DNA from: Escherichia coli
Lineage (GTDB): Bacteria > Pseudomonadota > Gammaproteobacteria > Enterobacterales > Enterobacteriaceae
Reading direction: 5' to 3' (one strand)
Length of the DNA stretch: 64,000 bases
Assembly (NCBI RefSeq): GCF_024223415.1
Contig: NZ_CP100500.1
A program made the translations under genes and the position numbers. Positions 22,458-26,501 of the stretch are shown piece after piece. Under the pieces are notes generated by a model. It was given only the letters and a program-made list of their open reading frames with translations, had not been told where the DNA came from and did not search any database. How positions within the stretch are numbered: position 1 is the stretch's first letter; every line of letters begins with the position of its first letter.

Positions 22458-23192
22458 ATGTCCAAACTCGATCTAAACGCCCTGAACGAACTGCCGAAGG
22501 TAGATCGCATTCTGGCGCTGGCGGAAACTAACGCCCAACTGGAAAAACTGGACGCTGAAGGCCGCGTAGCCTGGGCGCTGGATAATCTGCCCGGTGAATA
22601 TGTGCTTTCTTCCAGCTTCGGCATTCAGGCGGCGGTGAGCCTGCATCTGGTGAATCAGATTCGCCCGGATATTCCAGTGATCCTCACCGATACGGGTTAT
22701 TTGTTCCCGGAAACCTACCGCTTTATTGACGAGTTAACGGACAAACTCAAGCTCAACCTGAAAGTGTACCGTGCTACCGAAAGCGCAGCCTGGCAGGAAG
22801 CACGCTACGGAAAACTGTGGGAACAGGGCGTTGAAGGCATTGAAAAGTACAATGACATCAACAAAGTCGAACCGATGAACCGGGCGCTGAAAGAACTTAA
22901 CGCGCAAACGTGGTTTGCTGGTCTGCGCCGTGAACAATCCGGCAGCCGCGCCAATTTACCGGTGCTGGCAATTCAGCGTGGCGTATTTAAAGTGCTGCCG
23001 ATTATCGACTGGGATAACCGAACGATATATCAGTATCTACAAAAGCATGGCCTGAAATATCATCCATTATGGGACGAAGGATATTTATCGGTGGGCGATA
23101 CCCATACAACCCGTAAATGGGAACCCGGCATGGCGGAAGAAGAAACGCGTTTCTTTGGCTTAAAAAGGGAATGTGGGTTACACGAAGGGTAA
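22458..23192 (+). CDS. cysH: Phosphoadenosine phosphosulfate (PAPS) reductase
   Basis: ORF-track call 22305-23192 is a 5' over-extension through the REP; preferred ATG 22458 ([14 protein letters not shown]...) giving 244 aa. Confidence 0.95.
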
Positions 23193-23456
23193 ATATTGCC
23201 GGATAAATTAAACGCCTCTGTCAGAAATGATGGGTGCGTTTTTATTTTGCGAGCAGCATTCCTGATTTTAAACGTGAACGCCGCTGGAAGAATTATCAGG
23301 TATAGAATGGCGTCGGGTGCTTGAGGCTGTCTGGCGTTAAGCATTCGCGAGGTTCCAGATGGACAAAAGCCCCAGGCGATATTTCTATCAACCTGAGGCC
23401 AGCGTTCGAACCTAAGCAATTCGGATGTTAGTCTCTTCTTTGCAGGGAGGCAAGAC

Positions 23457-23609
23457 ATGCTAACAAAATATGCCCTTGTGGCAATCATAGTACTGTGTTG
23501 TACAGTACTGGGATTCACGCTCATGGTAGGCGACTCGTTGTGTGAGTTGAGTATCAGAGAACGTGGTATGGAGTTTAAGGCTGTTCTCGCTTACGAATCG
23601 AAGAAGTAG
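23457..23609 (+). CDS. hokX: Hok-family type I toxin peptide (50 aa, single TM helix, conserved Cys and C-terminal AYESKK-like tail)
   Basis: Own translation: [50 protein letters not shown]; AGGGAGG RBS 8 nt upstream; below the ORF-track size cutoff; symbol by position between cysH and cas3 (recall of K-12 hokX/sokX). Confidence 0.75.
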
Positions 23610-23614
23610 CCACC

Positions 23615-23636
23615 ACGCGGGGGTAAAACCCCGCGT
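23615..23636 (+). other. Stable stem-loop immediately 3' of hok-like ORF (8-bp GC-rich stem acgcgggg/ccccgcgt, 6-nt loop), no T-run
   Basis: Read directly; position consistent with the 3' fold-back hairpin typical of hok mRNAs. Confidence 0.55.
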
Positions 23637-23649
23637 ATTGAATTGTGAT

Positions 23650-23801
23650 GGTTTGGTCTCCTGCACCCTTTTTTAAATTTATATTTTTTATGTGAATATA
23701 TTGTCTCTATTTATTATTATGAATTTCAAATGAAAATCATAAATTTATTCACAATATAAATGTTTTATTGGCTGATATATATCACAGATAATTTTTAAAA
23801 T
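23650..23801 (+). promoter_or_regulatory. Extremely AT-rich cas3 upstream region (candidate H-NS-silenced promoter region)
   Basis: ~85% A+T tract directly 5' of cas3 start; H-NS repression of E. coli cas promoters is established, but no site is mapped here. Confidence 0.5.
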
Positions 23802-26501
23802 ATGCGTAAATATCCTTTAAGTTTACTGAAGGATAAAAATATTGTGACTTTCTTTGATTTCTGGGGAAAAACCCGACGCGACGAGAAAGAAGGGGGTGAC
23901 GACTATCACCTTCTTTGCTGGCATTCGCTGGATGTGGCCGCGATGGGCTATTTAATGGTTAAAAGAAATTGCTTCGGGCTGGCTGATTATTTCCGTCAAT
24001 TAGGGATTTCTGACAAGGAACAGGCGGCTCAATTTTTCGCCTGGTTGTTGTGCTGGCACGATATTGGAAAATTTGCCCGCTCATTTCAGCAACTTTACCT
24101 GCACCCACAACTCAAGGTTCCGGAAGGCGCAAGAAAGAATTACGAAAAGATCTCTCATTCAACGCTGGGCTACTGGCTGTGGCATCATTATTTAAGTGAA
24201 TGCGAAGAATTGCTTCCTGCCTCTTCACTCTCTACTCGCAAACTTAAACGTGTAATAGCGATGTGGATGCCCATGACTACCGGGCATCATGGTCGCCCGC
24301 CTGACCGTATTGATGAACTGGATAATTTTCTGCCTGAAGACAAAGCTGCCGCGCGAGATTTTCTCCTTGAAATCAAGCCACTGTTTCCGCAGCTAGAGAT
24401 CCCCGCATTCTGGGATGATGACGAGGGCGTTGAACTTATAAAACAACTTTCCTGGTATATCTCTGCAACCGTCGTACTTGCAGACTGGACAGGATCGTCA
24501 ACGCGATTTTTTCCACGCGTCGCACAGACAATGGATATTGAAGATTACTGGCAAAAGGCTTTAGTTCAGGCTCAAAACGCATTAACCGTCTTTCCTCCAA
24601 AAGCAGAAACCGCGCCTTTCACCGGAATTAATACGCTGTTTCCTTTTATTGAGAATCCGAAACCGTTACAGCAAAAGGTGCTGGATCTGGATATCAGCCA
24701 GCCAGGACCGCAGTTATTTATTCTGGAGGATGTAACCGGCGCAGGTAAAACAGAAGCGGCGCTTATCCTGGCACACAGGTTGATGGCTGCGGGTAAAGCT
24801 CAGGGTTTGTTTTTTGGCCTGCCAACAATGGCAACGGCCAATGCCATGTACGATCGGCTGGTCAAAACCTGGCTTTCTTTCTATTCGCCAGAATCCCGCC
24901 CCAGCCTGGTGCTGGCACACAGTGCCCGCACATTAATGGACCGCTTTAATGAATCACTCTGGTCCGGTGATTTAGTCGGGTCAGAAGAACCGGATGAACA
25001 AACGTTCAGTCAGGGATGTGCGGCCTGGTTTGCCGACAGTAACAAGAAGGCGTTGCTGGCTGAAATTGGCGTCGGCAAGCTGGATCAGGCGATGATGGCA
25101 GTGATGCCGTTTAAACATAATAATCTGCGGCTTCTGGGGTTGAGTAACAAAATCCTGCTGGCTGATGAGATCCACGCCTGTGACGCTTACATGTCGTACA
25201 TTCTTGAAGGGTTGATTGAGCGACAGGTGCGTGGCGGAAACAGCGTCATTTTGCTTTCTGCTACGTTATCTCAACAGCAGCGCGACAAACTTGTCGCCGC
25301 CTTTGCGCGTGGCACAGAGGGCCAGCAAGAAGCTCCGTTCCTGGAAAAGGATGATTACCCCTGGCTGACGCATGTCACGAAATCCGATGTGCATTCGCAC
25401 CGGGTAGCGACGCGCAAAGACGTTGAGCGTAGCGTGAGCGTGGGTTGGCTTCATAGCGAACAAGAATGTATTGCGCGTATCGAATCAGCGGTAAGTCAGG
25501 GGAAATGCATCGCCTGGATCCGGAATTCTGTCGATGACGCTATTAAGGTTTATCGTCAGTTACTTGCCCGCGGCGTCATTCCTGCTTCCAGCCTTTCACT
25601 TTTTCATAGCCGCTTTGCTTTTAGCGATCGCCAGCGAATTGAAACGGAAACGCTGGCACGCTTTGGTAAAAATTGTAGTTTAAAAAGATCATCTCAAGTC
25701 ATTGTTTGTACACAAGTAATTGAGCAAAGTGTGGATATTGACCTGGACGAAATGATCTCCGACCTGGCCCCCATTGATTTGCTGATCCAGCGAGCGGGGC
25801 GATTACAACGGCATATTCGCGATATTAATGGTCAGTTAAAGCGTGATGGAAAAGACGAGCGTTCCCCTCCTGAATTGCTGATTCTGGCCCCCGTCTGGGA
25901 CGACGCTCCTGGTGACGAATGGTTCGGCAGTGCCATGCGTAACAGTGCATATGTCTACCCGGATCATGGGCGAATCTGGCTGACCCAGCGTGTGCTGCGT
26001 GAGCAAGGCGTTATTCAGATGCCACACTCAGCCCGCCTTCTTATTGAATCAGTCTACGGTGAGGACGTGGTAATGCCGGACGGATTTGCCCGCAGCGAGC
26101 AGGAGCAAGTGGGCAAATATTACTGCGATCGCTCAATGGCTAAAAAGTTTGTGCTGAACTTCAGGCCCGGCTATGCCGCCAATATCAACGATTACCTTCC
26201 GGAAAAGCTGTCGACACGTCTGGCTGAGGAATCTGTTTCCCTGTGGCTGGCTAGCTGTATTAACGGCGTGGTGAAGCCTTATGCCAGCGGTGCTCACGCA
26301 TGGGAAATGAGCGTTGTCAGAGTGCGCCGAAGCTGGTGGAAAAAACATCGGGATGAGTTTTCTTTACTGGAAGGGGAAGTGTTAAGGCAGTGGTGCATTG
26401 AACAGCGGCAAGATCCGGAGATGGCAAACGTGATTTTAGTCACCGATGACGAAAGTTGCGGGTATTCGGCTACGGAAGGATTGATTGGCAAGGTTGATTG
26501 A
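23802..26501 (+). CDS. cas3: Cas3 helicase-nuclease (HD domain + SF2 helicase), type I-E
   Basis: 899-aa ORF; HD motif region (HSLDVAAMG...WHDIGK), Walker A (GAGKT) and DEAD-like (ADEIH) motifs; start ambiguous (ATG 23802 vs in-frame GTG 23844). Confidence 0.93.
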   Translation: MRKYPLSLLKDKNIVTFFDFWGKTRRDEKEGGDDYHLLCWHSLDVAAMGYLMVKRNCFGLADYFRQLGISDKEQAAQFFAWLLCWHDIGKFARSFQQLYLHPQLKVPEGARKNYEKISHSTLGYWLWHHYLSECEELLPASSLSTRKLKRVIAMWMPMTTGHHGRPPDRIDELDNFLPEDKAAARDFLLEIKPLFPQLEIPAFWDDDEGVELIKQLSWYISATVVLADWTGSSTRFFPRVAQTMDIEDYWQKALVQAQNALTVFPPKAETAPFTGINTLFPFIENPKPLQQKVLDLDISQPGPQLFILEDVTGAGKTEAALILAHRLMAAGKAQGLFFGLPTMATANAMYDRLVKTWLSFYSPESRPSLVLAHSARTLMDRFNESLWSGDLVGSEEPDEQTFSQGCAAWFADSNKKALLAEIGVGKLDQAMMAVMPFKHNNLRLLGLSNKILLADEIHACDAYMSYILEGLIERQVRGGNSVILLSATLSQQQRDKLVAAFARGTEGQQEAPFLEKDDYPWLTHVTKSDVHSHRVATRKDVERSVSVGWLHSEQECIARIESAVSQGKCIAWIRNSVDDAIKVYRQLLARGVIPASSLSLFHSRFAFSDRQRIETETLARFGKNCSLKRSSQVIVCTQVIEQSVDIDLDEMISDLAPIDLLIQRAGRLQRHIRDINGQLKRDGKDERSPPELLILAPVWDDAPGDEWFGSAMRNSAYVYPDHGRIWLTQRVLREQGVIQMPHSARLLIESVYGEDVVMPDGFARSEQEQVGKYYCDRSMAKKFVLNFRPGYAANINDYLPEKLSTRLAEESVSLWLASCINGVVKPYASGAHAWEMSVVRVRRSWWKKHRDEFSLLEGEVLRQWCIEQRQDPEMANVILVTDDESCGYSATEGLIGKVD

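Follow-up and report, generated by a model that had tools for sequence, protein, structure and literature searches.

The mechanism of the hok/sok module of plasmid R1, as summarised in PMC9841398, serves here as the template against which a chromosomal hok locus of Escherichia coli is read. Relatives in the interval downstream of cysH are already on record. An extra hok gene in the cysH-iap interval was named hokX, and the same source describes the hokX copy of E. coli B as inactivated by an insertion element and the hok loci of K-12 as non-functional (PMC7232551). Uropathogenic strains have hok and sokX beside cysH in 90% of cases; K-12-like strains have sokX alone (PMC12736100). The hokX/sokX locus has also been described in PMC3903273, where hok sok was found in all strains but those with the E2 cas variant (Almendros et al. 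2014).

The locus considered here lies between the end of cysH (23192) and the start of cas3 (23802) in the window, by which we mean the whole 64,000-nucleotide stretch of DNA that was analysed. We consider it highly likely that this is the chromosomal hokX/sokX type I toxin-antitoxin system in its complete, uninterrupted form, and that its I-E neighbour is incidental. Such a locus at cysH is already known, annotated and common, a hok/sok module of textbook type. Positions 23190-23810 are a 100% DNA match to E. coli SCU-316, in which the open reading frame is annotated as a Hok/Gef family protein, and the product of 23457-23609 (plus strand) is identical to RefSeq WP_000956458.1, “Hok/Gef family protein”, of SCU-316 and Nissle 1917. 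A sequence-only reading of the same DNA had called this ORF unannotated, which does not hold for public records. A plasmid origin was considered and rejected: the matches in plasmid collections were mislabelled chromosomes or large replicons with hokE, and none was a true plasmid match.

The toxin gene and its antisense RNA

The predicted Hok/Gef toxin gene, hokX, occupies 23457-23609 on the plus strand (ATG at 23457, TAG at 23607-23609, 50 codons). Its peptide matches the Pfam profile HOK_GEF (PF01848) over residues 5-46, covering all 42 profile positions, with 39.1 bits against a cutoff of 22 (E=5.7e-10). A hydrophobic stretch at residues 5-24, a conserved cysteine within SLCEL and a C-terminal AYES align with the motifs of R1 Hok (SLCEI, AYES) and with those of K-12 HokE. 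Against two NCBIfam models the peptide stays below the cutoff, at 53 bits versus 89 for the HokA equivalog (NF007290) and 39.5 bits versus 73 for the Hok subfamily (NF007279). These scores, together with 80% identity to HokE, place the peptide in a separate HokE/HokX branch, apart from HokA and from R1-type Hok. A Shine-Dalgarno sequence, AGGGAGG, lies at 23444-23450 (plus strand), 6 nt 5' of the ATG. The sequence-only reading had recognised the 50-codon Hok-like ORF, a transmembrane helix with the family's cysteine and AYES, the strong ribosome-binding site and a GC-rich stem-loop after the ORF, and all of these are borne out.

Alignments were made to hok/sok of an IncF plasmid and to K-12 hokE, followed by 50 relatives that a scan of species-representative genomes had supplied. 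The comparison indicates that the hokX peptide is under constraint. Variable columns number 31, 17 and 42 of 50 at codon positions 1, 2 and 3, and codon differences comprise 591 synonymous versus 352 non-synonymous changes. All 54 relatives read MLTKYAL or MPTKYAL, then SLCE, then LAYE or LACE, with LACE in place of LAYE in two, and the 50-codon frame is kept in 52 of the 54. At the Shine-Dalgarno sequence, GGAGGCAA is kept in 50 of 51 relatives.

On the opposite strand, the first 57 nt of K-12 sokX (b4701, 59 nt) align to 23359-23417 with one mismatch, which places the Sok antisense RNA gene, the orthologue of sokX, at 23417→23359. The predicted RNA has a single-stranded 5' tail followed by a terminator hairpin and CUUUUG (fold -22.7 kcal/mol, z=-3.6). 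Its promoter, as read from the sequence, would lie at 23425-23453 on the minus strand, with a -35 TTGCCT (23453→23448), a 17-nt spacer and a -10 TAACAT (23430→23425); the predicted +1 is seven nt beyond the -10, at about 23417. This element matches the consensus at 8 of 12 positions, under the 9/12 threshold of the scan, and has the same geometry as the Sok promoter of plasmid hok/sok (TTGCGC-17-TATCCT). The -35 and the hok Shine-Dalgarno region are reverse complements of each other, and AGGCAA, in the -35 region, is invariant in 51 relatives. The Sok gene is thus predicted to be convergent with hok, with its own terminator and with its own promoter overlapping the hok ribosome-binding site. 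A second promoter-like site on the minus strand, within hok (TTGCCA-16-TAGCAT with TG, 23484→23457), was treated as a chance match, because its -10 needs a CTA Leu codon that is CTG in most relatives and because the K-12 sokX annotation begins 40 nt further on.

The only Rfam family above threshold across the whole window is RF01794 ('sok'), which matches 23315-23472 at 110.4 bits against a gathering score of 59, full length over model positions 1-157. With this match and the K-12 sokX alignment, the antisense RNA falls where the sequence-only reading had expected it, at about 23330-23460. The strand that RF01794 models is that of the hok mRNA leader, not the antisense strand. Because it matches the sense strand over the entire hok leader, automated annotation would put the antitoxin on the wrong strand. 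An Rfam match to ctRNA_p42d at 23208-23250 (19.7 bits against 50, E=0.49) was set aside as merely the hairpin and U-tract that follow cysH.

The same reading placed a mok leader in this interval, and here its expectation stands only in part. When all three frames upstream of and across hok were translated, neither an R1-type mok of 70 codons nor an initiation codon at the position of the R1 mok start came to light. A TAG at 23429-23431 interrupts the frame that corresponds to R1 mok, and this frame lacks a start codon ahead of hok. The frame of hok itself is open upstream from 23397 but contains no ATG, GTG or TTG there. A 36-codon ORF with a TTG start (23321-23431) was also rejected as mok, since its start lies within the tac stem, 6 nt from the 5' end of the mRNA, and it ends before the hok Shine-Dalgarno sequence. 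What the leader does contain is a 12-codon ORF at 23425-23463 (plus strand), which spans the Shine-Dalgarno sequence and overlaps the start of hok, its stop codon (23461-23463) lying 4 nt past the hok AUG (AUGCUAA). In R1, mok translation is required only up to the hok initiation region (PMC9841398), so a 12-codon ORF in this position could do the job of mok. Its ATG is present in 45 of 51 relatives, overlapping or in frame with hok except at one locus (L052), and the remaining 6 of 51 have a different ATG that opens a 6-codon ORF with the same stop. No recognisable Shine-Dalgarno sequence precedes the ATG at 23425. Read on the minus strand, this ATG forms part of the Sok -10 hexamer; its conservation may therefore reflect the promoter rather than translation. 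By our own estimate, open frames of 11-12 codons would be expected by chance at about 59%, with some five independent lineages, which makes the conservation of the leader ORF suggestive and not significant. We regard the ORF as a candidate mok analogue only.

The predicted hok mRNA and its conserved fold

The full-length hok mRNA is predicted to run from 23315 to 23675 on the plus strand, about 360 nt from the tac box to a U-tract past fbi. Its 5' end is placed by position 1 of the Rfam model and by the plasmid hok tac box GGCGCTTGAGG. A putative -10 of the hok promoter, TAGAAT, lies at 23303-23308 (plus strand), 7 nt upstream of this end; upstream of it there is no good -35 and the consensus scan made no call. 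With so poor a -35, the hok promoter looks weak. Further upstream, after cysH, stands a terminator-like hairpin with a U-tract (23210-23249, plus strand; fold -13.4 kcal/mol, z=-1.9), for which a simple terminator scan made no call. This hairpin probably insulates the hok locus from cysJIH read-through.

The elements that the sequence-only reading had left to be mapped against hok/sok references, namely tac, a ucb-like box, fbi and the Sok promoter, are all located and undisrupted. De novo folding of 23315-23675 gives a minimum free energy of -135.4 kcal/mol (z=-4.56); the two ends of the RNA pair with each other, and the hok Shine-Dalgarno sequence pairs with an upstream UCUCUUC tract. In this fold the translational activator (tac) box GGGUGCUUGAGGCU, at 23315-23328 (plus strand), pairs with the fold-back inhibitory (fbi) box GGUCUCCUGCACCC, at 23655-23668 (plus strand) and followed by U6 at 23669-23674; the pairing joins GGGUGC/GCACCC and GAGGCU/GGUCUC (-20.6 kcal/mol). 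A fold of just the first 61 nt has tac paired with AAGCCCC (23367-23373), in a stem that Rfam also models. This alternative partner of tac is a ucb-like box, AAGCCCCAGG, at 23367-23376 (plus strand), and in the consensus full-length fold it is paired with CCUUGUGGC at 23474-23482 inside hok (helix 3). The Sok target hairpin (sokT), at 23395-23435 (plus strand), has a GAGGC/GUCUC closing stem, a 10-bp upper stem and a loop, CCUAAGCAA, with a CUAA turn of the YUNR type (fold -16.6 kcal/mol, z=-3.4). The stop codon is closely followed by the GC-rich 3' hairpin ACGCGGGG-GUAAAA-CCCCGCGU (23615-23636, plus strand; 8 bp, -18.4 kcal/mol, z=-4.2). If fbi is removed in silico, the 5' end of the 3'-truncated mRNA takes up a local fold, and the centroid structure contains the sokT hairpin. 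A local hairpin over the hok Shine-Dalgarno sequence and start (23438-23472) is not significant alone (-3.8 kcal/mol, z=-0.2) and its consensus pairs are invariant; no claim is made for it.

Homology among the 51 relatives starts at GGGTGC and ends just past GCACCC. The fact that it spans the tac box to just past GCACCC means that the conserved unit is exactly the predicted transcript. An RNAalifold consensus on the 51 sequences has 65 pairs, with 97.5% of its cells paired versus 38-47% for slid-partner controls, and with double (compensatory) changes at 19 pairs versus 3-7 in the slid controls. These pairing and covariation values were reached by 0 of 500 shuffles. Double changes occur in 19 sequences in the 5' stem, in 22, 8 and 8 in the upper stem of sokT and in 7 in its closing stem, and the base of the 3' hairpin covaries from CG to UA in 15 sequences. 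Helix 3 of the ucb-like box has 98% of its cells paired and is nearly invariant, hence yields no covariation evidence. The core of the tac/fbi pairing, GGUGC/GCACC, is paired in 51 of 51 relatives and is itself almost invariant, which confines the covariation signal to its variable extension. Cognate 5' and 3' partners beat permuted pairings in 1000 of 1000 cases (51 loci, relatedness ignored). The structure of the hok mRNA, including the pairing of its 5' and 3' ends, is conserved with compensatory changes across Enterobacteriaceae.

We propose that the locus works by the steps of its plasmid counterpart. The full-length hok mRNA would be locked by the pairing of tac (23315-23328) with fbi (23655-23668), and would be neither translated nor bound by Sok. 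Slow trimming of the 3' end back to the hairpin at 23615-23636 would then remove fbi; in the modelled structure the prerequisites for such processing, the hairpin and an fbi downstream of it, are present. Once fbi is lost, the ucb-like box (23367-23376) would become the partner of tac, and the Sok target hairpin (23395-23435) would take shape. For as long as the labile Sok RNA is made, it would pair with this hairpin and the mRNA would be destroyed. When Sok synthesis stops, ribosomes would reach the hok start, possibly by way of the 12-codon leader ORF (23425-23463) across the hok Shine-Dalgarno sequence, and Hok would damage the inner membrane. Transcription, processing, Sok binding, translation coupling and toxicity at hokX/sokX are each inferred, carried over from plasmid R1. 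Since hokX/sokX is chromosomal and single-copy, however, it cannot serve for the post-segregational killing of cells that have lost a plasmid. In 1999, Pedersen and Gerdes reportedly found that chromosomal hok loci in E. coli C killed cells and did not stabilise plasmids.

States of the locus and its neighbourhood

The population counts covered 5,426 complete genomes of E. coli. The stretch 23315-23640, with leader, hok CDS and hairpin, is present to 80% or more in 4,146 of them; the stretch 23586-23676 (hok 3' end, hairpin and fbi) is uninterrupted in 3,416, and 4,220 have any match to it. The intact allele of the window is the commonest state of the locus in E. coli and no exception. A K-12-type junction is found in 1,179 of the 5,426 genomes, with sokX kept, the toxin CDS lost and cas3 present: homology ends right after the hok ATG (23459) and gives way to K-12-type cas3 upstream sequence, and the outcome is an orphan sokX with both promoters retained. 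The counts of 4,146 and 3,416 imply about 700-800 genomes with an insertion sequence at the 3' hairpin. In many of the other genomes an element of the IS421/IS186 family interrupts this hairpin, with a target duplication of GGGGTAAAACCC; strain Res13-Lact-PEA06-10, for instance, has IS421 there with this duplication, and IS186 sits at the same hairpin position in K-12 hokE. Judged from these sequences, the 3' hairpin at 23615-23636 is an insertion hot spot for IS186 and IS421. IS150 is found in the leader as well, in one strain.

The copy in the window is free of insertion, as the sequence-only reading had noted. Being complete and IS-free, it is suited to experimental work on a chromosomal hok system, for which K-12 is unusable because the toxin gene is lost there. 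The coordinates of the Sok gene, the promoters, tac, ucb and fbi, the target hairpin and the leader ORF can be used for proper annotation; beyond correct annotation the locus has little importance.

Between the hok mRNA and cas3 there is a 126-bp spacer of 15% GC, and no regulatory sequence common to the two was found. Nissle has the order cysH-hok-iap, with the same Hok protein and without cas genes. In 13 species-representative loci cysH lies directly upstream of hok, and the downstream gene is iap in 8 of these and cas3 in 3. The eight cysH-hok-iap loci are those of E. whittamii, an Escherichia clade, E. coli E69, two Pseudocitrobacter, two Kluyvera and Lelliottia. At a fourteenth locus, that of E. 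albertii, cas3 is downstream and the contig ends before cysH. This gene order suggests that hokX/sokX is anchored to cysH, its constant neighbour, and that hokX adjoins cas3 only because the I-E cas cluster separates hokX from iap.

The sequence-only reading considered the proximity of cas3 noteworthy and suggested a link to defence, which finds no support here. On this account, hokX/sokX would be functionally tied to the I-E locus, either stabilising it against deletion or serving as an abortive-infection backup when phage shut off transcription. The adjacency of hokX and cas3 recurs in 2,239 genomes, hok sok accompanies the E1 cas variant (PMC3903273), and chromosomal hok/sok have been proposed as genetic stabilisation elements (PMC1635323). 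However, hokX is equally present without cas in Nissle and in E. whittamii, Kluyvera, Lelliottia and Pseudocitrobacter (8 of 13 syntenic loci), and the 1,179 genomes of the K-12 type have cas3 without hok; together these argue against a specific cas link. It is plain that the cas cluster disappeared on many occasions while hok remained, the reverse of what a stabilising role would produce. The neighbour that stays constant is cysH and not cas, and the hok mRNA and cas3 have no regulatory sequence in common. Even counting in its favour that R1 hok/sok can, as Pecota and Wood are said to have found in 1996, exclude phage T4, we regard a functional tie to the I-E locus as extremely improbable. 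We also give very little credence to a bolder proposal, in which hokX/sokX would be a sensor of transcription shut-off backing CRISPR-Cas I-E, or an addiction element anchoring the cysH-iap segment in which cas modules are exchanged, or to the smaller novelty of a HokE/HokX branch that would have replaced the 70-codon mok by a 12-codon or in-frame upstream start.

It is also conceivable that the locus is intact in sequence yet physiologically inert, in other words a domesticated or decaying remnant, kept by linkage or drift, whose toxin never reaches harmful levels. The weak predicted hok promoter, the lack of an R1-type mok or of a leader ORF led by a Shine-Dalgarno sequence, and the description of the K-12 hok loci as non-functional (PMC7232551) are consistent with inertness, and loss or disruption is clearly tolerated, given 1,179 genomes without the CDS and about 700-800 with an insertion at the 3' hairpin. 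However, the reading frame, the Sok promoter and 19 compensatory pairs have been maintained across many genera, which indicates that RNA and peptide alike are still under selection. Moreover, most genomes have the intact form (3,416 of 5,426), and repeated independent insertions that separate fbi from hok are the expectation for an active, costly element. We therefore think an inert remnant unlikely. The notion that 23457-23609 is a chance open frame in intergenic DNA and no gene could appeal to its length of only 50 codons, but is refuted by Pfam and Rfam matches above curated thresholds, by a frame kept in 54 loci from many genera and by the RefSeq annotation, and we attach next to no probability to it. 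A complete hokX/sokX system, with an incidental I-E neighbour, is the reading that we prefer.

Comparison with plasmid and chromosomal hok systems

Hok of the R1/IncF system hok/sok (parB) belongs to the same Pfam family as the hokX peptide, with SLCE and AYES conserved, although only 21 of 50 residues are identical. The two loci have a common type of tac box, the mRNA 5' end reading GGCGCUUGAGG in the plasmid and GGGUGCUUGAGG in the window, with a matching change in fbi (GCGCC in the plasmid versus GCACCC in the window). In both, the Sok promoter lies over the hok Shine-Dalgarno sequence and a GC hairpin follows the stop codon, and 23615-23636 corresponds to the R1 hairpin at which 3' trimming stops. 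Unlike R1, the window locus has a shorter leader, without a 70-codon mok and without a start codon at the mok position.

The closest paralogue is hokE/sokE of K-12 (b4415/b4835), in which 40 of 50 peptide residues are identical (80%) and the DNA is about 80% identical to the window over most of the mRNA. Both loci have tac, Sok gene, Shine-Dalgarno sequence, CDS and GC hairpin in the same order, and the spacing from the Sok 5' end to the hok ATG is similar (44 nt in hokE, 40 nt in hokX). However, hokE is at a different chromosomal site, ybdK-entD. Its upstream ATG is in frame with hok, owing to a 4-nt indel, whereas hokX has the overlapping 12-codon ORF instead, and its fbi end is cut off by IS186, whereas the fbi of the window is present.

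Within the cysH interval itself, the window copy differs from the sokX locus of K-12 in keeping the toxin CDS, the 3' hairpin and fbi, and from the IS421-bearing strains and the E. coli B copy (the latter according to PMC7232551) in having no insertion sequence. From E. coli hokX/sokX as found in SCU-316 and Nissle it shows no difference of substance: the locus, the protein and the position after cysH are the same.

The cas-proximal boundary of hokX

Of 5,426 complete E. coli genomes, 1,179 are K-12-type, and in these genomes homology to the hokX locus stops exactly 3' of the hok ATG (window 23459/23460; position 1770/1771 of the K-12-type comparison locus L002). The hok promoter, the leader, sokX and the Sok promoter are all retained, and the toxin is absent. 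The homology breaks directly after the hok ATG and the sequence beyond it is the K-12-type cas3 upstream region, which places one endpoint of the recombination that exchanged cas-E variants within hokX. In cas-less strains, homology to the window stops at 23675/23676. The 126-bp spacer that separates the end of the hok transcript from the cas3 start codon (23676-23801) has a GC content of only 15%, against a window average of 52%, a composition typically seen in promoter regions under H-NS-type silencing.

hokX-type units in other genera

Three loci from assemblies labelled Pseudocitrobacter (L010, L011 and L012, about 1000-2230) were compared with E. coli: their CysH products share 97-99.6% identity with the E. 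coli protein and their HokX 98%, whereas iap is only ~81% identical. This sequence contrast suggests either that a cysH-hok segment was recently transferred or that the assemblies are mislabelled or contaminated. In several species, including Pseudocitrobacter faecalis, Klebsiella oxytoca, K. michiganensis and K. grimontii, HokX/HokE-type loci occur in two or three copies at separate chromosomal sites (L016, L018, L022, L058 and others). The full unit, from the 5' tac box to its 3' pairing partner fbi, is present in every copy, which suggests that the ~360-bp hok transcript unit is a module that moves or duplicates.

Overlapping signals in the leader

Toxin and antitoxin signals share bases at two points. 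The Sok -10 hexamer and the ATG that opens the 12-codon leader ORF occupy the same six base pairs, 23425-23430, on opposite strands (ATGTTA/TAACAT), and the Sok -35 overlaps the hok Shine-Dalgarno (AGGCAA/TTGCCT), such that mutations in these shared bases would alter expression of toxin and antitoxin jointly. The Rfam model named "sok antitoxin" (RF01794) matches the plus strand across the entire 157-nt hok leader (23315-23472), whereas the curated 59-nt sokX RNA is encoded on the minus strand. Annotation derived from RF01794 would have both the strand and the extent of the antitoxin wrong. A further promoter-like sequence on the minus strand (TTGCCA-16-TG-TAGCAT, 23457-23484), its -10 of the extended type, lies within the first hok codons and is directed toward the leader; it is probably a chance match, because relatives do not conserve it.

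Insertions in the 3' hairpin

The GC hairpin 3' of the hok stop codon (GGGG-N6-CCCC, 23615-23636) is a recurrent IS186/IS421 target, and hokX appears to be split there in ~700-800 complete E. coli genomes. The corresponding positions in the comparison loci are about 3430-4800 in L063 and 2008 in L005. Strain Res13-Lact-PEA06-10 carries an IS within the hokX hairpin with the target duplication GGGGTAAAACCC. Every such insertion cuts fbi off from hok. The equivalent hairpin position in hokE, the K-12 paralogue at another chromosomal site, is likewise occupied by IS186.
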